Below are positions 45,997 through 63,890 of a DNA stretch of 64,000 nt, in pieces. Each line of letters begins with the position of its first letter. The stretch's first letter is position 1. The notes under the pieces were generated by a model, which worked only from the letters and a program-made list of their open reading frames with translations, ran no database searches and was not told where the DNA came from. The position numbers and the translations under genes were made by a program. Origin of the DNA: Deltaproteobacteria bacterium (lineage in GTDB: Bacteria > Myxococcota_A > UBA9042 > DTJE01); the NCBI GenBank assembly GCA_029555025.1, contig JAKPTZ010000121.1, positions 7,425 to 71,424 of the forward strand, read 5' to 3'.

Positions 45997-48315
45997 ATGT
46001 CGATTACGCAGTGCGCCGCCGATTTGTGTGCGAAAGCCCGTTCCGAGGGAAGGGATACCCTTCTTGAACCAGAGCTTTATTCCCTCCTTGCCGAGGGCGG
46101 TGTCCCGGTTCCGGCCAACTTCATGGTCACTCCGGATGCAATGGCGGTTGCCGCCATCGCCGGGGCTCCCAGGCTTCCCGGTTCCAGGGTTGTCGTAAAG
46201 GTTGTTTCTCCCGCCATAACCCATAAGACCGAGATGGGCGGCGTCAGGTTCGTCGAAAACACCCCCGAGGCCATATCAGAGGCCTGCACCGGAATCATTC
46301 AGGCCGTGACCGAGCGCGGCGGGCCGGAACTCGCCGCCACCGTGCGCGGATTGATGGTTTCCGAGATGGTTCCGGTCGGTCACGACATTTCTTCCCAGCT
46401 CTTTGCAGGGATGCGGTTCTCACCGGACGTCGGCCCTGTTCTCGCATTCGGATTCGGCGGCCTGGAGGCAGAGGAACTTGCCGCGCGTTTTCGCGACGGC
46501 CAGGGCGTCGTCCTGATGTCCCCGCTTGTCATGACCCCGGAACAGATGCTTTGCAAGTTCCGGAAGTCCTTTGTTTACCGGAAGCTGGCCGGGCTGACCC
46601 GCGGAGGTGCCAGGCAGGTGTCGGACGAAGAATTGATGAAGGTCTTTAAGTTTTTCATCGACCTGGCCGTCAATTTTTCGAATCAGCCGGGGACGGGTTG
46701 GCTGGTCAAGGATTTCGAGGTCAATCCGTTCTTCGTGTCGGAAGGCCGCCTTGTCGCGGTTGACGCCTTCATGCGCTTCTGTCCGGAACTGGTCGTCGAG
46801 CGCGTCTGCGATCTGGAAAAGACGCACACATTGCTTCACCCGAAGACCGTCGCCATCATGGGAGCCTCTTCCAAGGGCATCAACGTAGGTCGAATCATCC
46901 TTGCCAATCTTCTGAAGAAGGGCTTCCCTTCCCGCCTGATTCGCGTGGTCAGGCCGGACTGCGAGCCGGTTGACGGTGTTGAGGCGGTCGCCACGATTTC
47001 CGATCTTCCCTGGGTTGCAGACATGGTAGTCGTCGCGGTCGGAGCGAAGCAGGTTCCGGCGATCATCAAGGAGTCGCTGGAGTGTGGAAAGGCCGCTTCG
47101 ATGGTTCTTATTCCTGGTGGAATGGGCGAGACCGAGGAAGGGAAGGCGACCGACCGTGAGATTCGCTCGCTGATTCGCGAGGCCCGTGCCGCAGGAAAGT
47201 TCGTTCCGGTTTTCGTTGGTCCAAACTGCCTGGGCGTCAGTTCCGTGCCCGGAAACTACAACACCCTGTTTGTTCCCGAAACCAAGCTGCCTCCCCAGGA
47301 TGCAAGCCAGAGTCGCGACAACGCCGAAGTGGCGCTGATCTGCCAGTCCGGCGGCTTCCTGATCACGCGCATGATGAACATGCCCTGGGTCGAGCCGCGT
47401 TACGCGGTCTCTACCGGCAACCAGATGGATCTTGCTCTGGTCGATTTCGTCGAATCAATCCTCAAGGATGACCAGGTCGAGGTTTTTGGCCTTTACATCG
47501 AGGGTTTCAAGCCGCTGGACGGTCTTCGTCTTGCCAGGCTCATCCGGAAGGGACGCGCCGCGGGTAAGGATTTCGTCGTATACAAGGCGGGCCGCACATG
47601 TGCCGGCCAGACCGCCACATCGTCGCATACCGCTTCGATATCCGGCGACTACGACTCGTGCTATGAGGTTCTGGCCGACGCGGGCGCCCTGATGACCGAG
47701 TCGCTCGAGGAATACAGCGAACTCATGCAGATGGCGATTGCCTTCAAGCGCAAGAAGATAAACGGTACAAGGCTGGCCTGCCTTTCCAACGCCGGATACG
47801 AGACTGTAGGGATGGCCGACGCGATTTGCGAGAAGTCGCAGTTCACGCTTGGCGACTATGACGAGAAGACGGCGGCCACGATACAGAACGTGCTTACAAT
47901 GGGTCGTCTTGCGGGGCTGGTCGATATTCACAACCCGCTTGACATCACCCCCATGGCGCCTGATCTGGTCTATGCAGGTTGCCTGCAGGCCCAGATTTCA
48001 TGTCCGAACATCGATGCGTGCATCGTCGGGATTCTGCCTCTGACTCCGGCAATGAAGACGTTGCCCCCGGGAGTCGATCCTGCCGGCGTTGATACCATCC
48101 TGGCCCCGGACGCACTTCCTGCCCTGTTTTCAAAGATTGCGCACTACTCGGCAAAGCCGGTCATCACCACGGTCGATTGCGGACGCCTTTACGACCCGCT
48201 CTGCGATGAACTGCGCAAGAACGGCGTGCCGTGCTTCAAGAGCGTCGATTCCGCGATGAAATCGCTTCAGCGCTACATGCTTTACAGATTGGGCCTTTCG
48301 GAAAACGTCTGCTGA
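45997..48315 (+). CDS. Acetate--CoA ligase, ADP-forming (fused ATP-grasp and CoA-binding domains)
   Basis: N-terminal ATP-grasp region and a CoA-binding/succinyl-CoA-synthetase-like alpha domain (VAIMGASSKGINVGR). Confidence 0.7.
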   Translation: MSITQCAADLCAKARSEGRDTLLEPELYSLLAEGGVPVPANFMVTPDAMAVAAIAGAPRLPGSRVVVKVVSPAITHKTEMGGVRFVENTPEAISEACTGIIQAVTERGGPELAATVRGLMVSEMVPVGHDISSQLFAGMRFSPDVGPVLAFGFGGLEAEELAARFRDGQGVVLMSPLVMTPEQMLCKFRKSFVYRKLAGLTRGGARQVSDEELMKVFKFFIDLAVNFSNQPGTGWLVKDFEVNPFFVSEGRLVAVDAFMRFCPELVVERVCDLEKTHTLLHPKTVAIMGASSKGINVGRIILANLLKKGFPSRLIRVVRPDCEPVDGVEAVATISDLPWVADMVVVAVGAKQVPAIIKESLECGKAASMVLIPGGMGETEEGKATDREIRSLIREARAAGKFVPVFVGPNCLGVSSVPGNYNTLFVPETKLPPQDASQSRDNAEVALICQSGGFLITRMMNMPWVEPRYAVSTGNQMDLALVDFVESILKDDQVEVFGLYIEGFKPLDGLRLARLIRKGRAAGKDFVVYKAGRTCAGQTATSSHTASISGDYDSCYEVLADAGALMTESLEEYSELMQMAIAFKRKKINGTRLACLSNAGYETVGMADAICEKSQFTLGDYDEKTAATIQNVLTMGRLAGLVDIHNPLDITPMAPDLVYAGCLQAQISCPNIDACIVGILPLTPAMKTLPPGVDPAGVDTILAPDALPALFSKIAHYSAKPVITTVDCGRLYDPLCDELRKNGVPCFKSVDSAMKSLQRYMLYRLGLSENVC

Positions 48316-51115: not shown

Positions 51116-53521
51116 TTACTGCAGGCTGCATTTGGACGTGATGCCGAAGATGTGTCCCGACTCGCCGGTCTGGCCCTTGGTCGAGCCGCTGCCACCGCTG
51201 AACCCTCCGTCGCCGCCAAGGCCGACAAGCATGTATTCGTTGGTTTCGCATGTCGGGTTCGAGGATGCACCGACTATGTAAAGCGGGAACGTCGGGCCGC
51301 CCGGTCCGCCGCCACCGTCGCCACCGTCGCCGCCGTTGCCGCCCTTGCCGCCAGACGCCCCGGCACCGGCTCCGTCGGCCGTGGCGGCACCGCCTGCCCC
51401 GGCCTGACCGCCATCGCCGCCGGCCCCGCCGGTTCCACCGACGCCGCCGCGTCCGCCGAACCATGACTTGAGCGTATTATTCTTAATGACCGGGCTGGAG
51501 TTCACCACGAACAGCCCGAACGAGCCGCCGCCGCCACCGCCGCCCGAGCCTGCCGTGCCGCCGCATCCACCGCCGCCGCCGCCGCCACCGGCGCCGCCGG
51601 CCGAGTAGCATTCCGCGCCGAAAATGGCCGCGTCATCGTCGCCACCACCACCGCCGCCGCCGCCGCCGCCCTTGCCGTGATCGCCGTTGGTGCCGGCCCC
51701 GCCGGTCAACGGAATGAACAGGCCGCCCGCGCTGATGCTTCCACTTGCGACGCCGCTTCCGCCATCGGTCCCGTCGTTTCCGTCCGGGCCCGGTTTTCCG
51801 ACAGAACCATCGGTCTGTTCATCGGGAGCTCCAGCACCCCCGGCCCCGCCCGAACCGGTCGCGGCGGTACCGGCCAGGCCGCCGTCGCCGAGCTTGCCGC
51901 CCGCGCCGCCCTTGCCGCCGTCCATCGAGCACGGGCTGCCACCGCCGGGCCCAGGCTTCATGTTCGTGTTGAAGTCGAATTTGGTGCAGATGCAGGGACC
52001 GCATCCGTCATAAACGAATGCGTCCGAGCCCTTGGTTCCGTTTGTACCGGCCTGCCCGTTCGTGCCGAAGTTGCCGTTTCCGCCCTGGGTTCCGCTGTCG
52101 GCTTCCAGGTAATTGTTGGATATCACCAGGTCTTCGTCGCATCCCATGACGTGCATGCCGTACGAGGAACCCGAAAGCTGAGACGACTGGGACGATTTCA
52201 CGTGGAATCCGTCGAATGTCGTCGGCTCGGTGATGTTTCTGGCCACGACGGCACGCACGGCAAGCGTCTCCTGGCCGTTCCAGGAAATGATTGACTGGTT
52301 GGTCACAAGGTTTCGCTTCCATCCGCTGTCGCCGTCATATCCGCCATAAACGCTGACGCCGTTCACCAGGTTGACCTGTTCCTGGTAAATCCCCTTCGAA
52401 ACATAGACTTCCGGAATTGGCGACTGTTCAGCCGCAAACGCCATCGCAGCCCCGATCGTTGCAAACGGGAAGGCCATCGATCCGATGAAGTTGTCGTCAT
52501 CGCCGCCGTTCATCACGAACACGCCGGTCTCGACATCGCCGTCAATCCCGTCACAGTCCGCGTCGATGTATTCCGGATCCGGATGGTCAACGGTCGATTG
52601 GAAAAGGCACTCGTACTCGCACCCGTCATCGGGCACGCCGTTCAGGTTGACGTAGCCCCGCAGGCATGCGTCCAGCTTGCATTTGCCGCCGCTGCACGAC
52701 GCCGTGGCGTTCGGATAGAAGCAGCGGGTCTCGCAATCGCCGCAGTGGTTGGGGTCGTTGTCGTAATCCGTGTCCGACGCGCATTCGCAGTGGTCGCTTG
52801 TCGGAACGCACTGCCTTGATATCGTGGTGCCGTCGATGCTGGTTGCCTCGACACATTTGAAGTCCAGTTCTATGACTTCGCAGGTCACTTCATCCTCGAG
52901 GCACTCCTCGATGGTTGTTTCGTTCTTGAAACTGCACTCGCCGGTGTTGTCGCAATCCTTGATCCTGGTCATCGACTCGCAATCGGAATCCTGGTTGCAG
53001 GACTGTCCGCAGTACTTCTTGTTGCCGTACTGGATGCACAGGGCACCCGCGGCGGTGCACTGGCTGTTTTCAGAGCATTCGGACTGGCAGAGCTGGTTGT
53101 AGTCTGGCATGCATGCGTATGCCGAGTCGCCGCCGCCAAGCAGGACCTGGCTGCATTCCCATCCTTCCGGGCATTTGCTTGAACACAGCCGCGTGCATCG
53201 CAGGTAGTTTTCATGAGGCATCTTGATGCAGTAGCCGCTTTCGCAATCGGGGTTCTCGTCGCAGATGCAGCCAAATCCCATCGGAGTCATGGCGCATGGA
53301 TCCCCGACATCCTCCGTGTCCTGGGAAAGCGCGTCGATTCCGTCCGCCTGCGTCATCCCGTCGCGGCCCTCGTCGTAGGCCGCATCAAACGCATCGAGGC
53401 CGCCCTGATCCAGCGTTATGTCAACAGGAATATTGACGTCCTCGCCAGGCTGGGAGCCACCGCCGCAACCGGCCATATGAATGGCGACCAGGGCCGAAAA
53501 AACAGTAATGACTGGACGCAT
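51116..53521 (-). CDS. Cys-rich repeat / beta-helix / poly-Gly lipoprotein (hypothetical secreted)
   Basis: Lipobox MAGCGGG and multiple 'CxxxxDCxSGYC'-type Cys repeats (myxobacterial Cys-rich repeat-like). Central beta-helix-like region and a Gly-rich C-terminal half with runs of up to 10 Gly. Confidence 0.6.
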   Translation of the reverse strand: MRPVITVFSALVAIHMAGCGGGSQPGEDVNIPVDITLDQGGLDAFDAAYDEGRDGMTQADGIDALSQDTEDVGDPCAMTPMGFGCICDENPDCESGYCIKMPHENYLRCTRLCSSKCPEGWECSQVLLGGGDSAYACMPDYNQLCQSECSENSQCTAAGALCIQYGNKKYCGQSCNQDSDCESMTRIKDCDNTGECSFKNETTIEECLEDEVTCEVIELDFKCVEATSIDGTTISRQCVPTSDHCECASDTDYDNDPNHCGDCETRCFYPNATASCSGGKCKLDACLRGYVNLNGVPDDGCEYECLFQSTVDHPDPEYIDADCDGIDGDVETGVFVMNGGDDDNFIGSMAFPFATIGAAMAFAAEQSPIPEVYVSKGIYQEQVNLVNGVSVYGGYDGDSGWKRNLVTNQSIISWNGQETLAVRAVVARNITEPTTFDGFHVKSSQSSQLSGSSYGMHVMGCDEDLVISNNYLEADSGTQGGNGNFGTNGQAGTNGTKGSDAFVYDGCGPCICTKFDFNTNMKPGPGGGSPCSMDGGKGGAGGKLGDGGLAGTAATGSGGAGGAGAPDEQTDGSVGKPGPDGNDGTDGGSGVASGSISAGGLFIPLTGGAGTNGDHGKGGGGGGGGGGDDDAAIFGAECYSAGGAGGGGGGGGCGGTAGSGGGGGGGSFGLFVVNSSPVIKNNTLKSWFGGRGGVGGTGGAGGDGGQAGAGGAATADGAGAGASGGKGGNGGDGGDGGGGPGGPTFPLYIVGASSNPTCETNEYMLVGLGGDGGFSGGSGSTKGQTGESGHIFGITSKCSLQ
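51526..51680. repeat. Low-complexity GCC/GGC trinucleotide run encoding poly-Gly within the lipoprotein gene
   Basis: Near-perfect (gccgcc)n tracts visible on the plus strand. Potential slippage-prone region. Confidence 0.5.
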
Positions 53522-56545: not shown

Positions 56546-57514
56546 TCACTGGTCGCCACGGATTTCTTTAATTGTCCGACCCAGGCCTGCCTTCAAGGCG
56601 AAAGGCATGCAGCAGAGCGCCGTCACCGTCCGAATCACCGCAAGGGACGCCGTGGCGCTTGCCGAGAACGCGTCTATGGCAGCCGTCGAACCGCCGGCCT
56701 GCGTGACATAGGGTTCGAAAAATGCCCTCATGAGAACCATGGTGGGTCCGATCCCGGCAACGGTGATCGGAAGGACGCACGCGAAGCTGTCAACGGCGAA
56801 AAGCTGCATGAATACGCCGACAGGAATGTCCAGGTTGAACGTTCCGAGCATCAGGAAGTCGCCCGACATGTCGAACGCAAGCAGGATCACCCGCAATCCA
56901 AGGACGGCGGCCACCCCGGCCGGCCCGGAAGCTCGGAAGGTGTGCAGAAGACCGGAGGGCGCATCCTTCCGCCGCCCTGCCCGCGCATGGGCTGCCGCAG
57001 CCATGACGGCGGGCAGCCCCAGCAGGCCGAGTATCGCTCCAACCGCCAGAAGGGTGGGCACGCCGGCCTTCAGGTGGTCTCCGGAACCCGAGGCGAGACC
57101 GGCGATCAGTATCGCGGACACGACGAAAAGGTCGATCAGGTTCAGGGCTATGAACGGGCTTGCAAGCGATTGCCACCTGACAGACCGGCCCCTGGCCGCG
57201 GCCGCCGCGATCAGCACGAACGCCAGGTTATAGTTGATGAAACCGAGCAGGTATGACGATGCCCGGATTGCCAGCAGGCGGGGATAGGGAATCCCGATGC
57301 CCGTCCGTTGCAGAAGGGCGTGAAGTCCGGCCGAGTCAAGGAGCAGGTGCGCCGCCGCGAAAGCGACGGCCAGGATGGAGAAAGTCCCGAAATCCGCCAG
57401 GGCTACCGCCGAGCGCAAGCCATCGAATTGAGTTGTTGCCGCAACCCAGGCGATGAGGCCCGCGGTTACGAGCCACGGACCAACCCTGCGCGCCACTTCC
57501 CTGAATGTTTTCAT
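56546..57514 (-). CDS. Polytopic membrane protein, flippase-like / lysyl-PG-synthase-TM-like family (UPF0104-like)
   Basis: ~8 predicted TM helices. ATG at 57514 overlaps the upstream stop (ATGA). Confidence 0.5.
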   Translation of the reverse strand: MKTFREVARRVGPWLVTAGLIAWVAATTQFDGLRSAVALADFGTFSILAVAFAAAHLLLDSAGLHALLQRTGIGIPYPRLLAIRASSYLLGFINYNLAFVLIAAAAARGRSVRWQSLASPFIALNLIDLFVVSAILIAGLASGSGDHLKAGVPTLLAVGAILGLLGLPAVMAAAAHARAGRRKDAPSGLLHTFRASGPAGVAAVLGLRVILLAFDMSGDFLMLGTFNLDIPVGVFMQLFAVDSFACVLPITVAGIGPTMVLMRAFFEPYVTQAGGSTAAIDAFSASATASLAVIRTVTALCCMPFALKAGLGRTIKEIRGDQ

Positions 57515-58464
57515 CGCTGGCAGCCCCATGCCTTTCCTGATTCGACAAGCTCCGCCTGCACGGTAAGCCTGACGCCGGTCCGCCAGTCAAAGGGTGCCCG
57601 GAATCCGGACTCATACAGTTCGTGGCAGTCCATTGCGACTGCACTTCCGGGAAACGGGTGCGGGCCGTCGCGGGGATCTTTTCCGGAATCTTCAGGGACT
57701 TCGGGCTCAAGCCCGAGTTCGCTGCGGACTTCGGCCACAAAACCCGCCGGGGTGACCGGATCCGGCCCGGCGACCGGAATGCGGCGAATGCCGGGCCCGG
57801 AAGGGCTTGATGAGATGTGGACAATCGCGTGCGCAACCGTATCGACGAAGCCGTCGGGCATGGCGTTGTCGCCGTTGCCCGCGAACCGTACCGGTCGTCC
57901 GGTCATGATGGCGCGGATGACATCCCTTGTCCTTCCGCGCCGGCCGTCCGGGTCGTGGTCGCCCGGCCCCCACATCATTGGCAGGATGACCCATGTGACA
58001 TCAAGCCAGGGCTGATCCGCAAGGACCAGGAAGGCTTCAAGCTTTCCCCTGGCGTGTTCGTCGTCGGCCATCAGCGGCGAGTCGGATCTTATCGTCCCGC
58101 CTTCAGCCAGGATTCGTGCATGTTCGCCGATCGTGGACGTGATGACGAATGATGGGAGCCTGATGCCGGAATCCGCCACCGTCCGGCACGCGCTGACCAG
58201 TTGGACGGCGTCGTCGGCACTCGATATCGCCGTGTCAATCCATGTGGTGGCGCCGGACTGCAGAAGCATCTTCGCCAGATCGGGTCGTTGCCGGTCTCCG
58301 GTAATCCGGGTGACGCCGCCTGTCTGTCGGATCGGGCGCCGCCTGGAGACTCCCGCAATCCCGTCGACCGGACGCCCGGAAGCGGTCGATGCGGATGCCG
58401 CGGCCAGGCACAGGCGATGTCCCAGGAATCCTCCGGCCCCGACGATGATGGTGTGGAATTTCAC
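57511..58464 (-). CDS. NAD-dependent epimerase/dehydratase family (SDR-type Rossmann) protein
   Basis: 'IIVGAGGFLG' dinucleotide motif. GTG start overlaps the radical-SAM stop (GTGA); the ORF opens at 58563 but would then overlap the upstream gene by 100 nt. Confidence 0.6.
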   Translation of the reverse strand: MKFHTIIVGAGGFLGHRLCLAAASASTASGRPVDGIAGVSRRRPIRQTGGVTRITGDRQRPDLAKMLLQSGATTWIDTAISSADDAVQLVSACRTVADSGIRLPSFVITSTIGEHARILAEGGTIRSDSPLMADDEHARGKLEAFLVLADQPWLDVTWVILPMMWGPGDHDPDGRRGRTRDVIRAIMTGRPVRFAGNGDNAMPDGFVDTVAHAIVHISSSPSGPGIRRIPVAGPDPVTPAGFVAEVRSELGLEPEVPEDSGKDPRDGPHPFPGSAVAMDCHELYESGFRAPFDWRTGVRLTVQAELVESGKAWGCQR

Positions 58465-59471
58465 GTCCGAACCCCGCCCGACTCGAATTCGTCCCAGCCC
58501 ATTTTTCGGGTGTATTCGGAAAATACACCGGTGCAAGGTTCGTTCCAGCGGCAGCGGCCGCACGTTTTTCCGTTCTTCTGCCTGTCGCTGCCGACGGACC
58601 CGCCGTAGGCCCCGGTAATCAGGTTGAATTCCGATTCGATCAGGTACGCGTCCAGGTTATAGCCCTCGTATCCCGGCATCAGGCAGTTCGGGATGTTCTT
58701 GAACCCGACGCCGACCCCGACCTCGCGTCCGCGGTCGATTGCGGCCCGTATCGCCGCCGCCGACTCGGACAGGGGCAGGAAGATGCGATCCATATCCTCC
58801 GAGGTGCTTCCGGCCGGCTTCATGCCGGAAAAAATCACGGTGGGCTTGTGGGAAATCGGCTTCAGGGCCGCCACCGAATCCACGTAGTTGTTCATGTGGG
58901 CAACGTTTGCCCTTGTGACCACGCCGTACAGGAACGTCTCTACGCCTGGAGTTCCCATCAGGTTCATAAGAGCCTTGAAAACAAGTTCCCCGCAGCGTGG
59001 ATTCCTGGAAAGCCACACGGTAGTCTCCGGATCGAAGTCGTCGATGGACAGGTGTACCGTCCGCATGCCGGCATTCACAAGGCTGGCAACGACCTTCGGG
59101 TAGGAAAGCATCAATCCGTTTGTCGTAAGCGTGATTTCGTTGATGCCCGACGCAGTAAGGAGCTGCATCGTATGCAGCAGATCCCTGCGAATCGTCGGCT
59201 CGCCCCCGACCAGCGCGCACTTGCGGAAATTCCAGCGGGCCGCCTTCCTGATGGTGTCGGCCACCGATTCCGGCGTGGCATAGTACTGGTGGCTGTGATC
59301 CAGGCAGCAGTACCGGCACGACATGTTGCAGACGTTGCCCAGGTTCAGGTGGAACACATGACTGCACATCCTGCTGAAGCGCAGCATGAAATCCACCGGG
59401 GAATCACATGCCGGAGTGTCGCGCAGAATGGTTACATCGACGGTGGGATCAAGAGTCTTCTGGTGATACAT
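58461..59471 (-). CDS. Radical-SAM enzyme with a C-terminal SPASM/twitch-like Cys cluster
   Basis: 'CNMSCRYCC' CxxxCxxC motif and C-terminal 'CGRCRWNEPCTG'. ATG at 59471 after GGGGGAA. Lies 100 bp downstream of the BMC-T gene on the same strand. Confidence 0.75.
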   Translation of the reverse strand: MYHQKTLDPTVDVTILRDTPACDSPVDFMLRFSRMCSHVFHLNLGNVCNMSCRYCCLDHSHQYYATPESVADTIRKAARWNFRKCALVGGEPTIRRDLLHTMQLLTASGINEITLTTNGLMLSYPKVVASLVNAGMRTVHLSIDDFDPETTVWLSRNPRCGELVFKALMNLMGTPGVETFLYGVVTRANVAHMNNYVDSVAALKPISHKPTVIFSGMKPAGSTSEDMDRIFLPLSESAAAIRAAIDRGREVGVGVGFKNIPNCLMPGYEGYNLDAYLIESEFNLITGAYGGSVGSDRQKNGKTCGRCRWNEPCTGVFSEYTRKMGWDEFESGGVRT

Positions 59472-59573
59472 CGGTTCCCCCGGCCGCACCCCCGAAAACG
59501 ATTATAGTCGCCGCCGTCGCCGTGGCCATAAAAAGTTGGGATGGGGCATTGGCAATGGGAAGGCTCTTTGTCG

Positions 59574-60179
59574 TCAGACAGGTGAGATACCGAGTGCGGC
59601 GATGAATTCGGGGTGTGGATTCGGTATGACTTCGGTGCCGAGCAGCCTGTCCTGGCCGATGCTTTCGGCCGCGGCCTGGATCGATGCCTCCACGTCGAAG
59701 AGGTCGCCGGAAAAAGCGAAGTAGCACTTGCCGCCGATGCCCGCCGAAAGGTGAATGACGTTTAACTTGACCATGGCCGCCTTCAATGCCGCGTCGGCCG
59801 ATCTGATGCCGGCGCACGAGGTCGAGCATTCCACGACACCCAGTGCTTCTGCCCCCGGGTCGGCCATGGGCCCGAAAACCCCGCGCTCAAGCTGCTCGTG
59901 TGCAAATGGAAGGAAAAACCTGTCAATCAGCTTGTCGCCTGCAAGCCTTTCGGCTTCCAGCAGCGATTCCTCGACCTCGGCAACGCTTCCGTCGATAAGT
60001 ATCAGGAATTTTCCCGGAGTCACGGTCGCGGCCAGGCATATGCGCGAGCGGGCCTTCTTGACAAGCGCGTCGATGCAGACGAAGCCCCGTGCGATCCCGT
60101 GTACTTCAATCCCCGCGAATGCCTCGGGGACGACCTGAAGGTCGGGCAGTGGAAAAAATCTGGCTGGTGTAAGGCTCAA
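59574..60179 (-). CDS. Tandem-BMC-domain shell protein (BMC-T, PduT-like)
   Basis: Two BMC-like domains (AGIEVHGIARGFVCIDALVKKA... and ALGVVECSTSCAGIRSADAALKAAMVKL...). TTG start 4 nt after GGAGG. Confidence 0.7.
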   Translation of the reverse strand: MSLTPARFFPLPDLQVVPEAFAGIEVHGIARGFVCIDALVKKARSRICLAATVTPGKFLILIDGSVAEVEESLLEAERLAGDKLIDRFFLPFAHEQLERGVFGPMADPGAEALGVVECSTSCAGIRSADAALKAAMVKLNVIHLSAGIGGKCYFAFSGDLFDVEASIQAAAESIGQDRLLGTEVIPNPHPEFIAALGISPV

Positions 60180-60216
60180 TTGGCCTCCGCAAAGGATCTC
60201 GCCCGAAAAGGGGGCG

Positions 60217-61656
60217 TCAGACGATCCTGAAATAGTCCTTGAGCACGCATCTGCGCTCGCGGGTGAAGTTGATTGCCGTGGTCATGCCTTCCCCGGTCGG
60301 GCTGGCAATCGTCCACGACGTATGACCCTCACCCATGAAACCGGTGCCGGCCAGCGACGGCGCGTTTTTCACGAAGATCGAGCAGTCGGCCGCGCGCGCG
60401 TACCGGTGCAGGTTTTCGATGTTCAGCGAATGCATCACGGCGGTATGCCGGAATCCGTGTTCAACCCGAAGTGCCGCCTTGATTCCCTCATCGACGTTTC
60501 GAACCCGGAACATCGGGATGATCGGCATCAACTGTTCGGCCTGAACCAGCGGGTGTTCCTCGTCGACTTCGCAGAATGCAATCCTGACATCGTCGGGAAT
60601 GTCGATTCCCACCTGCTTGAGGATGACCGAAGCGTTCCTTCCGACGAACGCACGATTCGGTTCGTGACCCTTCAATACGAGATCGACAAGTTTCGGCACG
60701 ACGTTGTCCCTGATGTAGTAGGCGCCGGCCCTGACCAGTTCCTGCTTCAGCCTGTCGGCAATCGCCTCGACCGCGATGATTTCCTTTTCGACGATGCAGA
60801 TGATGTTGTTGTCCATCCCCGCACCCTTGACGATGTCCCTTGCGGCATTAGGAAGTATGGCCGTTTCGTCAACCAGCGCCGGAGGATTGCCTGGGCCGGC
60901 CGCGATGCACTTCTTGCCGGTTCCCATCGCGGCCTTGACGAGGCCCGGGCCACCGGTGACGACAACAAGGCGCACGCCGCTGTGGCGCATCAGCCTGTCG
61001 GCCGATTCGATGGTCGGCTCCGGAATGACGCAGATAAGGTTGTCCGGTCCACCGGCCGCCATTACGGCCTGGTTCAACATCCTGACGGTATCGACCGTCG
61101 TCTTCTTCGCGTTCGGGTGGGGGTTGATCACGACAGCGTTGCCGCCGGCGATCATTCCGATTGCGTTGTTGATGATCGTTTCAGTCGGATTAGTGCTCGG
61201 CGTGATCGAGCAGATGACCCCGTATGGGGCGCGCTCGGTCAGGGTGAGTCCGTAATCGCCTGTCTGAGCCTTCGGCTGGAGGATCTCGATTCCCGGGGTC
61301 TTCAAGGCTGCAAGCCTGTTCTTGGCAATCTTGTCCTCGACGCGGCCCATCTTTGTTTCTTCGTGGGCCTTGCGCGCAAGCTCGGGCGCGTTCGCCACCG
61401 CAACATCCCGGATGGCCTGGATGGCATTGGCGCGAACCTCGAGTGAAAGACGCATCAACTGTTCGTGCGCCGCCTGGGCCGCCTGCACGCAGCCGTCGAT
61501 GTCATTGTGGACACCGAAGGTGCCTGGCTTGTTGACGTTGGTCACGATGGCCGGGCCCCGAACCGGGCCGTGTCCAGCCGGCAGGGCTCCCTCGTCCCGC
61601 AGGCGGGCCATCACCTGTTCCACGATTGAGGATATTTTCTGCTCTTCAACAGCCAT
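60217..61656 (-). CDS. CoA-acylating aldehyde dehydrogenase (EutE/PduP-type) with an N-terminal encapsulation-peptide-like amphipathic helix
   Basis: Aldedh fold with catalytic-Cys region 'NNIICIVEKE'. N-terminus 'EEQKISSIVEQVMARLRDEG' followed by a Gly/Pro linker. Confidence 0.85.
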   Translation of the reverse strand: MAVEEQKISSIVEQVMARLRDEGALPAGHGPVRGPAIVTNVNKPGTFGVHNDIDGCVQAAQAAHEQLMRLSLEVRANAIQAIRDVAVANAPELARKAHEETKMGRVEDKIAKNRLAALKTPGIEILQPKAQTGDYGLTLTERAPYGVICSITPSTNPTETIINNAIGMIAGGNAVVINPHPNAKKTTVDTVRMLNQAVMAAGGPDNLICVIPEPTIESADRLMRHSGVRLVVVTGGPGLVKAAMGTGKKCIAAGPGNPPALVDETAILPNAARDIVKGAGMDNNIICIVEKEIIAVEAIADRLKQELVRAGAYYIRDNVVPKLVDLVLKGHEPNRAFVGRNASVILKQVGIDIPDDVRIAFCEVDEEHPLVQAEQLMPIIPMFRVRNVDEGIKAALRVEHGFRHTAVMHSLNIENLHRYARAADCSIFVKNAPSLAGTGFMGEGHTSWTIASPTGEGMTTAINFTRERRCVLKDYFRIV

Positions 61657-61669
61657 TGTGGCCCCCTGG

Positions 61670-61957
61670 CTACTTCAGGTAGCGAGACCTGCCGTCGATC
61701 GCCAGTTCATCGACGATCGCCATGATCGTCGCGTCAACCGGACGATTCTTCGTCGCTTCAGTCTGCCTGGCCGACGAGCCGCTGGCATAAAGGACGACTT
61801 CACCAACGCCGGCGTCCAGAGAATCGGCTGCCACGACCATTTTGCCGGTCTCCTTCATGTTCTGATCCAGTTCGTTGACGACCAGAAAGCGGAGCCCGAC
61901 CAGATCCTCGTTTTTCCTGGTGGATACGACGGTACCCACCACGATTCCCATCATCAT
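61670..61957 (-). CDS. BMC vertex pentamer protein (BMC-P, EutN/CcmL family)
   Basis: '[27 protein letters not shown]...' EutN/CcmL fold. AGGGAGGA RBS. The ORF opens at 62038. Confidence 0.85.
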
Positions 61958-62110
61958 GGCAGTCCTCCCTTCGGACTCTGGGTCCGACACGGCGCCCTGT
62001 GACGTTCGGGCGACCAGTGGTGCCCGATCACGGAACATCAGCAGGCAGGGCTTGTCCGGCCCGCCTGAACGGCAACCGCTTCAGGCCGGCCAAACGTATT
62101 CCCCGCGGGC

Positions 62111-62407
62111 CTACTTGCCGGCCTTCGCGCCCTGGCGGCCAAGCGGCAGGACTTCGTCGATGTTCGCGTGCGGACGCGGAATAACGTGAACGGAAACCAG
62201 TTCGCCAACGCGTTCAGCCTGGCGGGCGCCGGCCTCGGTCGCCGCCTTGACCGCGGCGACGTCGCCACGGACGATGGCGGTGTTGTAACCGCCGCCGATC
62301 TTTTCATAGCCGACCAGTTCAACCTTGGCCGCCTTGACCATGGCATCGGCCGCCTCGACCAGCGCAACAAAGCCCTTCGTTTCGATCATTCCAAGAGCAT
62401 CAGCCAT
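62111..62407 (-). CDS. BMC hexamer shell protein (BMC-H, PduA/EutM/CcmK-type)
   Basis: '[56 protein letters not shown]' canonical BMC domain. GGAGG RBS. Confidence 0.9.
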
Positions 62408-62470
62408 CGTTAACCTCCAGAACTTAACAAAGCCCGTCGCGTCCGCGCGGGCACATCCAGTCGCCCGGCA

Positions 62471-63082
62471 TCAAACGCCGGACATCGATTTCAAAACCTT
62501 TATCGCCGCCTCGGCTGCCGAATCGATTTCGGATTCGGATCCCGAGAGCCATAGCCGTCCGTAAGCGCCGTGGGGATGAATTTCGACGAGGGAGACGTCG
62601 GCGGCCTTGAGTGCCTCGTTTGCCGCGATCGCCACATACCCCGCCGGTTCGGTTTCAAGAATGAACAGGCTCTGCCCGGGAAGGATCATCATGCCCCACG
62701 AATTTCTGTTGATGATCTGGGCCTGGAACGGTTCGATGGAACGAATAATCTGGGTCGATGTGATCACCGGCTTCATCCGGTCGTTCTCGGAAAGCTTCAG
62801 GTAGTCCAGGATCGCGGCGCCGGCACGCTCGACCTCGCCCTTGTCGAAATCGTGGAGTTCGACCACGCCGAAGGCCCGCTCCACCACCTGCATGCCAGGG
62901 GCCACCGTTGTTGCCTTCAGTGCCCGATCCGTGATCCTGTTGATGATGATTGCCGGCTGGACCTCGACGAACAGCGAGGCCTGCTCCGGCAGCGGCAGGA
63001 ATCCCTGGGCCGTCTTGCCCAGATAGGCCGCGAGTTGCGGCTGCAGGCTGTCGATGAATGAAAAGGTCCGCAGGGTAATCAT
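62471..63082 (-). CDS. Tandem (permuted) BMC-domain shell protein (BMC-T, PduB/EutL-like)
   Basis: Two permuted BMC-like repeats (…[25 protein letters not shown]… and …[25 protein letters not shown]…). ATG at 63082; the ORF opens at 63181. Confidence 0.65.
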
Positions 63083-63335
63083 TTCAGTCGTCCAGGTCGC
63101 CACGCCCGGCCGGGCCGGTACTTCCGTCCGTTCCAGGGTCGTGGCCAAGACTCGCGGCAGATTATCACAGGAAGCGGCCACCAGTCGATAGCTATTGCGT
63201 GAAAAACAGTGTGTACGGATGTTCAGGCAAGATGCGTCTGGATCGGTTCCATGCGTGAGCCTGAAGGCCGGCGGTTCAACGGGTTACATCAAATCTATTG
63301 ACCTTGTCACCCCGCTGCGTGCAACATTCCGTGGT

Positions 63336-63383: not shown

Positions 63384-63890
63384 ATGGGCAAGACGACAGA
63401 CAACCTGAAGGCGGCCTTTGCTGGTGAGAGCCAGGCCAGGAACAAGTACATCGCATATGGGCGCAAGGCCGAACTCGAAGGCATGCCGAACGTGGCAAAG
63501 CTCTTCCGGGCCGCAGCAGATGCCGAGGAAGTCCACGCCATCCGCCACTGGAAGGCCCTTGGAATGGTACGCGACACGTTGCAGAATCTCGAGGACGGGC
63601 TTGCTGGCGAAACGTACGAAATCGTCGATATGTATCCAGAATTCCTCGCCCAGGCCGAGAAGGAGCAGGAAATCACGGCGACCTATGCCTTCAAGGGCGC
63701 CCTCGAGGCCGAAAAGATCCACCAGAAGCTGTATGCCGCGGCCATCGAGGCGGTCAAGGCAGGCGCCAGGGACATCGAGGCATTCCGCGTATATACATGC
63801 GAGGTCTGCGGTTACACCCACGTTGGTGAACCGATCGAGAAGTGTCCGATCTGCTCTGTTCCGTGGACGAAGTTCCACGAAGTCCTGTAG
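63384..63890 (+). CDS. rbr: Rubrerythrin (ferritin-like diiron domain plus C-terminal rubredoxin-like CxxC...CxxC)
   Basis: 'KAAFAGESQARNKYIAYG...EEVHA' diiron motifs and 'CEVCGY...CPIC' rubredoxin-type domain. GGAGGA RBS. Confidence 0.85.
   Translation: MGKTTDNLKAAFAGESQARNKYIAYGRKAELEGMPNVAKLFRAAADAEEVHAIRHWKALGMVRDTLQNLEDGLAGETYEIVDMYPEFLAQAEKEQEITATYAFKGALEAEKIHQKLYAAAIEAVKAGARDIEAFRVYTCEVCGYTHVGEPIEKCPICSVPWTKFHEVL

Follow-up and report, generated by a model that had tools for sequence, protein, structure and literature searches.

The window analysed here, a stretch of 64,000 nucleotides deposited as part of a Deltaproteobacteria genome (contig JAKPTZ010000121.1 of assembly GCA_029555025.1), carries close to its end a cluster of five minus-strand genes for a bacterial microcompartment (BMC). 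It is highly probable that this cluster is the main locus of an HO-type (subtype I) BMC in an uncultured Myxococcota bacterium, the nearest relatives of which are bins labelled Anaeromyxobacteraceae. The assignment is made because the gene order, the matches to HO shell proteins, the aldehyde dehydrogenase (AldDH) bearing an encapsulation peptide, and the absence of core and signature enzymes agree with the description of the type by Sutter et al. (PMC8217296). An initial annotation of the window had described a Haliangium-like microcompartment locus with an incomplete core and no signature enzyme. The class behind that description is already recognised as the 'HO' type, subtype I, of Sutter et al., and the locus is a further example of this catalogued class, not a new class. 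The microcompartment system extends past the window, with a third trimeric shell protein (BMC-T) encoded about 7 kb beyond its end. As to the substrate of the HO class, the window offers no new clue.

Shell genes of the locus

Five intact open reading frames (ORFs) occupy positions 59574-63082 on the minus strand, with spacers of 63, 153, 13 and 37 nt and nothing else between them. The boundaries proposed in the initial annotation are exact, running from the stop of the last gene to the best-supported ATG of the first. ORFs and Pfam matches together give the order Tdp-H-P-AldDH-Ts, which is the T-H-P-AldDH-T arrangement that had been read. The five gene identities also hold when Pfam matches are judged against the curated cut-offs, all five proteins scoring above threshold. 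Each protein was in addition searched against all solved structures in the PDB. The family and structure matches are far beyond chance.

The first gene (62471..63082, minus strand) encodes BMC-Tdp, a permuted, double-stacking trimer of the CsoS1D/CcmP type with 203 aa from the ATG at 63082, and a homologue of HO-T2 (Hoch_5816). The Pfam BMC match (33.4 bits, cut-off 24.5) covers the C-terminal half only, as expected for a permuted BMC-T, and the precomputed hits also give PF27545, CsoS1D_N. The best PDB match is HO-5816 (5v74/6n07), which aligns end to end with E 2.7e-82, followed by 5v76, CcmP and CsoS1D. In the long ORF, the ATG at 63082 corresponds to residue 35, where the alignment with HO-5816 opens, and the relatives open there too. 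The hexamer shell protein BMC-H (62111..62407, minus strand, 98 aa) is a homologue of Hoch_5815; it scores 106.8 bits with Pfam BMC and matches 5djb, the HO-5815 structure, with E 3.3e-44. The pentamer vertex protein BMC-P (61670..61957, minus strand, 95 aa) scores 98.5 bits with EutN_CcmL (cut-off 25). It is a homologue of the BMC-P chain in 5v74, the solved HO shell (E 3.5e-27); we take this chain to be Hoch_5814. The start of the window protein at 61957 is set by the opening of this alignment at residue 28 of the long ORF.

The last gene (59574..60179, minus strand) encodes BMC-Ts, a tandem, non-permuted trimer of 201 aa with the fold shared by HO-T1 (Hoch_5812) and PduT. Pfam BMC matches it in two stretches (104.1 bits), and the PDB search gives the tandem BMC-T proteins 3pac (E 5e-32) and 5dih (E 8.5e-32), the second of which is labelled HO-T1, Hoch_5812 (PMC8217296). 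This protein had been called PduT-like, which is right for the fold and not for the identity. In the alignment with 3pac a Thr, in TVTPGKF, stands where PduT has its cluster-ligating pore Cys, in TICPGKF, and the NCBIfam model eut_PduT gives 103.7 bits, below its cut-off of 250. Because the pore Cys is replaced and the score falls below the cut-off, the protein is to be regarded as one with a PduT fold but not as a PduT, and HO-T1-like is the better name. With the matches to HO-5816, HO-5815, the BMC-P of 5v74 and 5dih, the likeness to the H. ochraceum shell set seen in the initial annotation is well founded.

BMC-H and the tandem BMC-T occur once each in the 74 kb examined, that is, the window plus 10 kb beyond its end, and tblastn detected no further BMC-domain gene in the window. 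Beyond the end, a second BMC-Tdp gene, which makes the third BMC-T overall, is located about 7 kb away (L001:1261-1920). Its best PDB match is 5v76 (E 2.5e-79), presumably Hoch_3341/T3, and the two BMC-Tdp proteins are 46% identical to each other. The matches show that a complete predicted set of HO-kind shell building blocks is at hand: one hexamer, one pentamer, one single-layer trimer and one double-stacking gated trimer, with the second gated trimer about 7 kb off.

A sigma-70-like consensus match is found upstream of the first shell gene at 63161..63188 on the minus strand (TCGACT-16-GATAAT, with an upstream TG). Chance alone predicts 2.0 such sites in the 8 kb searched, and two were seen, which makes this site weak evidence, notable only for its position in the correct intergenic region and its orientation.

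Aldehyde dehydrogenase and encapsulation peptide

The fourth gene (60217..61656, minus strand) encodes an AldDH of 479 aa. It scores 103.2 bits with Pfam Aldedh (cut-off 23) and 635.9 bits with NCBIfam NF011927, an EutE/PduP-type subfamily (cut-off 403). Residues 43-475 align with the PduP-type enzyme 5jfl (E 6e-129). Within the motif DNNxxC(I/V)xEKE, Cys287 aligns with residue 330 of the 5jfl chain, the catalytic cysteine. The enzyme can be assigned to the CoA-acylating PduP/EutE type, and its predicted catalytic Cys is intact. Assemblies from JGI, ENA, NCBI and Logan include 16 contigs that encode the identical AldDH.

The first 42 residues of the protein lie outside the catalytic-domain alignment, and the alignment to solved PduP-type enzymes opens at residue 39-43. 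The initial annotation had proposed an encapsulation peptide here. Residues 1-23, MAVEEQKISSIVEQVMARLRDEG (61588..61656, minus strand), are predicted to form an amphipathic helix, after which a Pro/Gly/Ala-rich linker extends to about residue 42. In residues 4-22, EEQKISSIVEQVMARLRDE, hydrophobic side chains occupy positions i, i+3, i+4, i+7, i+8 and i+11, and the Pro/Gly/Ala-rich stretch comes next. When 22 HO-type AldDH N-termini are compared, the helix pattern is kept and the linker varies in length and sequence. A conserved amphipathic helix followed by a variable linker is the accepted signature of an encapsulation peptide. A hidden Markov model (HMM) of these N-termini was run over every ORF of 60 aa or more from the window and from the adjoining 10 kb past its end. 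The AldDH was the sole protein matched (E 1e-9), the next hit having E 3.9, and none of the neighbouring ORFs was picked up. At the level of sequence the N-terminus is confirmed as an encapsulation peptide.

Relatives and comparison with known microcompartment types

A scan of species-representative genomes with the AldDH gave 22 loci. The closest, with 85% AldDH identity, are in bins labelled uncultured Anaeromyxobacteraceae (Myxococcota); most of the others are in Myxococcales or Deltaproteobacteria bins, at 51-58% identity. By tblastn with the window proteins, the order Tdp-H-P-AldDH-Ts recurs in about 18 Myxococcota or Deltaproteobacteria bins (AldDH 51-85% identical). Since BMC-H is 84-93% identical even in those Myxococcota loci where the AldDH reaches only 51-58%, purifying selection on the shell set and the AldDH is evident.

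The HO type, which occurs mostly in Deltaproteobacteria/Myxococcota, was defined with 41 loci (Sutter et al. 2021, PMC8217296). Before that, Axen et al. 2014 (PMC4207490) had counted the H. ochraceum locus as a metabolosome whose core is incomplete. The window locus has the same five proteins in the same order as Hoch_5812-5816 of H. ochraceum. As in other HO type I systems, there is a single BMC-H, one BMC-Ts of the HO-T1 kind and an AldDH with an encapsulation peptide. Type I main loci consistently hold shell genes and an AldDH only (PMC8217296, Supplementary Data 2), and the window locus likewise has no phosphotransacylase (PTAC), alcohol dehydrogenase or signature enzyme beside its shell genes and one AldDH. 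Two BMC-Tdp proteins of distinct clades, one encoded outside the main locus, are a further shared feature, as are the Myxococcota host and the conserved synteny. There are also differences. The T3-like gene of the window organism is only about 7 kb from the main locus, with housekeeping genes between, and HO type I has a BMC-P triplet, two of them on a satellite, whereas one BMC-P is present within the window and the 10 kb beyond. The neighbours of the window locus, a divergent rubrerythrin gene and a downstream radical S-adenosylmethionine (radical-SAM) module, are specific to its lineage, whereas PilZ and beta-barrel-like genes flank more distant HO loci.

The AldDH of the HO type is reported to be nearest to those of SPU5 and SPU7, subtypes of the sugar-phosphate utilisation (SPU) microcompartments (PMC8217296). 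Four more distant loci from the scan (L011, L012, L014 and L028, from Spirochaetes, Neomarinimicrobiota and one unclassified bin) resemble the window locus in BMC-Tdp, BMC-H and BMC-P, and carry extra BMC-P pairs and a common RpiB-like ORF family. The locus from the Neomarinimicrobiota bin includes a fused RpiB-DeoC of 474 aa beside the BMC genes (L028:5915-7339; PF02502 and PF01791), with an AldDH 54% identical to that of the window. Judged by this gene content, the four can be classed as SPU-type loci. Their AldDHs are 54-56% identical to that of the window, which fits the published closeness. Unlike SPU loci, the window and its 10 kb flank contain no RpiB (PF02502), no DeoC (PF01791) and no BMC-P pair beside the AldDH.

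With the PDU and GRM types the window locus shares several features of the AldDH: alignment with the PduP type over the full catalytic domain (E 1e-129), the catalytic Cys, and an encapsulation peptide at the N-terminus. The tandem PduT fold of BMC-Ts is also common to them, whereas the Fe-S-ligating cysteine of PduT is missing. Diol dehydratase, glycyl-radical enzyme, PduL, PduQ and PduS are absent from the window, and the double-stacking BMC-Tdp of the window organism sets it apart from these types as well. Both of its BMC-Tdp proteins can be aligned over their whole length with CcmP and CsoS1D (E 1e-54 to 1e-69) and share the fold of a gated double-trimer pore, but both score below the NCBIfam cut-off for CcmP (253 and 272 against 340 bits). 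Unlike in carboxysome loci, no RuBisCO, carbonic anhydrase or CcmM/N is encoded nearby.

Genes surrounding the locus

The window is 100% identical to JGI contig Ga0116248_10000004 (326 kb), and three other retrieved loci are 99.5-100% identical to it. Its annotation was taken from Pfam hits on the called genes of these loci. The gene content includes gyrB, LarB/LarC-like genes, fumarase, IspD, an ROK kinase, RecA, AlaRS, a large TIG-domain protein, a type II secretion cluster, RNase III, a MiaB-like enzyme, SmpB, an S8 peptidase, an ADP-forming acyl-CoA synthetase, PolA, TrmB and a CCG-domain Fe-S oxidoreductase. Beyond the window end follow, in order, rubrerythrin, exonuclease III, GlmU, two lipoproteins, a 243-aa protein, the second BMC-Tdp and a sigma/anti-sigma pair of the extracytoplasmic function (ECF) family.

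Less than 1 kb separates the locus from the end of the window, the AldDH is PduP-like and the last BMC-T has a PduT fold, which would suit a standard locus of the PDU, EUT or GRM type with its signature and core enzymes lying past the point where the window stops. The genes on both sides speak against this. Pfam hits for all called genes, in the window and in the 10 kb past its end, included no PduL/Pta, alcohol dehydrogenase or aldolase, and no diol/ethanolamine lyase, diol dehydratase or glycyl-radical enzyme. The absence of PTAC, alcohol dehydrogenase and signature enzyme from the window, as read in the initial annotation, was thereby upheld. A signature enzyme with PTAC or alcohol dehydrogenase just outside the window, which would have made the locus a standard one, was not encountered either: the 10 kb past the end are without any metabolosome enzyme, and the other side of the locus is made up of housekeeping genes over 59 kb. 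Moreover, BMC-Tdp is unusual in PDU and EUT loci (PMC8217296). We consider such a truncated locus extremely improbable.

Three genes between the T3-like gene and the main locus were considered as cargo and rejected: two products have lipoprotein-type signal peptides, the third has no significant family, and none has an encapsulation peptide.

Possible function of the compartment

The function of the HO type 'remains enigmatic' (PMC8217296), and in the literature of 2021-2026 we found neither a native substrate assigned to an HO BMC nor a link to radical-SAM enzymes. The statement in the initial annotation that substrate and role of the class lack an assignment agrees with this.

In view of the HO assignment, the following sequence of events is proposed. 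The shell proteins would assemble into an icosahedral shell of roughly 40 nm, as in the solved H. ochraceum shell, and the encapsulation peptide would draw the AldDH inside. By analogy with metabolosome biochemistry, an aldehyde made in or at the compartment would then be oxidised with NAD+ and CoA to the acyl-CoA, the toxic aldehyde being confined. Following the literature on the class, the aldehyde-forming enzyme would have its gene in another part of the genome. An aldolase would be the likeliest source, either a class II enzyme (PF00596) encoded beside two further BMC-P genes or one of the DeoC type. In HO type I, a PF00596 aldolase with two BMC-P genes is found on a satellite in 24 of 30 genomes, and some DeoC orthologs have extensions resembling encapsulation peptides (PMC8217296). 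If the source is an aldolase, the substrate would probably be a sugar phosphate, derived from the breakdown of polysaccharides or nucleic acids. On the pattern of other HO type I genomes, two more BMC-P genes and an aldolase are expected elsewhere in the genome of the window organism. Cofactors would have to be recycled without a locus-encoded PTAC or alcohol dehydrogenase, possibly by passage through the gated pores of the BMC-Tdp proteins.

Alternatively, there may be no dedicated aldehyde-forming enzyme, the shell and AldDH acting as a general scavenger of aldehydes that diffuse in from the cytosol. That within 74 kb an encapsulation peptide is detectable on the AldDH and on no other protein would be consistent with this, as would the restriction of type I main loci to shell genes and AldDH (PMC8217296). 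However, the satellite aldolase beside BMC-P genes and the extended DeoC orthologs point to a dedicated source, and no characterised metabolosome is known to be without one. We regard a scavenging role as unlikely.

Several points weigh against the HO type I reading with an aldolase as partner. No aldolase is present in the 74 kb covered, and one BMC-P is found there where three would be expected. The closest solved relatives of the AldDH are of the PduP type and use propionaldehyde, and this alone gives no pointer to the product of an aldolase.

Among microcompartment shells, that of the HO type serves as the chief model for structural work and engineering, although no native substrate has been assigned to it. 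A new HO member alone adds little to this. The locus does place the class in a myxobacterium that recurs in bioreactor or environmental samples and has neighbour genes of an anaerobe type, and it shows that a T3-type shell gene can sit within 7 kb of the main locus. That a main locus is again without an enzyme beyond the AldDH reinforces the view that the answer sits in satellite loci.

A radical-SAM module downstream of the shell genes

Downstream of BMC-Ts, on the same strand, follow three genes identified by Pfam, which overlap at their ends. They encode a radical-SAM enzyme (58461-59471, minus strand), an extended short-chain dehydrogenase/reductase (epimerase-like) protein (57511-58464, minus strand) and an LPG_synthase_TM-like membrane protein (56546-57529, minus strand). 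The gap of 102 nt between BMC-Ts and the radical-SAM gene contains a promoter-like site (59501-59528) that agrees with 10 of 12 consensus positions. The radical-SAM family is tiny, with about 15 relatives at E < 1e-40 among 5.8 billion proteins, and no curated NCBIfam model claims the protein. Its members have a conserved CX3CX2C motif and four C-terminal cysteines, and are always accompanied by an epimerase-family partner. Frequent further companions are the LPG_synthase_TM-like membrane protein, a DegT aminotransferase or additional large radical-SAM enzymes.

The position of this trio invites the proposal that the radical-SAM and epimerase-like proteins are the missing signature enzymes, which would perform radical chemistry on a (nucleotide-)sugar or lipid-linked substrate and provide an aldehyde for the encapsulated AldDH. 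The rarity of the family and the lack of a curated model that claims it would suit such a special role. The radical-SAM gene follows BMC-Ts not only in the window but also in loci L007, L026, L032, L034 and L035, down to 49% identity of the radical-SAM protein. However, those of the BMC-adjacent loci that reach upstream of the BMC genes all have the same flanks, GlmU, Xth and rubrerythrin, which indicates that the adjacency is one inherited arrangement and not a repeated association. A metagenome scan with the radical-SAM protein gave three loci, of which two are the same lineage beside the same BMC locus and thus provide no independent association.

Other observations also speak against participation in the compartment. 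The trio is absent from L008, where the AldDH is 85% identical and BMC-Ts is directly followed by the CCG gene, from L009, and from all HO loci at 51-58% AldDH identity. Conversely, L036 and L038 have the LPG_synthase_TM/radical-SAM/epimerase module together with further radical-SAM genes but lack any BMC gene within 10 kb, and in L037 a homologue stands among shikimate-like and sugar-aminotransferase genes. Homologues that are adjacent to BMC genes and those that are not have the same length, with no terminal extension, and the HMM of encapsulation peptides gave no match in the trio proteins. On these grounds, and in view of its own promoter-like site, the trio was rejected as BMC cargo. We hold it very unlikely that the radical-SAM and epimerase-like proteins are the signature enzymes of the compartment. 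The trio is probably a separate module that is not part of the microcompartment, and it probably serves some uncharacterised sugar, lipid or envelope modification.

A looser connection, in which the radical-SAM and epimerase-like pair is functionally coupled to the HO compartment within the Anaeromyxobacteraceae-like lineage and might supply or consume an aldehyde-bearing sugar derivative, is given only a slim chance. If true, the HO class would gain its first hint of a substrate, and no earlier microcompartment would be supplied by a radical-SAM enzyme other than a glycyl-radical activase.

Additional observations on neighbouring and related loci

The ADP-forming acyl-CoA synthetase (45997-48315, plus strand; 772 aa, with ATP-grasp_5, CoA_binding_2 and Succ_CoA_lig domains) could in principle convert the AldDH product to acid and ATP without PTAC and kinase. 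Its gene is 12 kb from the locus among housekeeping genes and its product has no encapsulation peptide; it was set aside as a PTAC substitute, a role that would be speculation only. A GC-rich hairpin just past the BMC-H stop (62053-62095, minus strand) was likewise discarded as a regulatory element. The 73-nt fold has -44.3 kcal/mol and z = -3.6, but it is probably not a conserved element, since the equivalent regions in relatives fold no better than shuffled sequence (z values of 0.1 to -1.9), and it has no U-tract.

The rubrerythrin gene (63384-63890, plus strand) is divergent from the first shell gene, about 300 nt of intergenic sequence lying between the two. Throughout the Anaeromyxobacteraceae-like lineage (L007, L008, L032, L035) the same layout is kept, but not in other HO loci.

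In 10 distant Myxococcales HO loci (L013, L015, L016, L019-L024, L027), BMC-Ts is directly followed by a gene for a PilZ-domain protein of about 235 aa (Pfam E 3.8e-11; L016:12036-12743). Upstream of about six distant Myxococcales HO loci there are genes for a 985-aa MshEN-domain protein and an ECF sigma factor. PilZ and MshEN domains both bind cyclic di-GMP, and these neighbours hint at second-messenger control of HO compartments. In the lineage of the window none of the PilZ, MshEN and ECF neighbours is found. A conserved ORF of about 220 aa (L016:8622-9278) lies between BMC-Tdp and BMC-H in 10 distant HO loci, including L015, L017, L019-L022, L024 and L025, and is not present in the window. 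Its product, for which Pfam has no match, is beta-barrel-like in sequence and has a signal peptide. Between PolA and TrmB, the window itself encodes an 801-aa protein (51116-53521, minus strand) without a Pfam match, which combines a signal peptide with an N-terminal half rich in Cys and a C-terminal half very rich in Gly.

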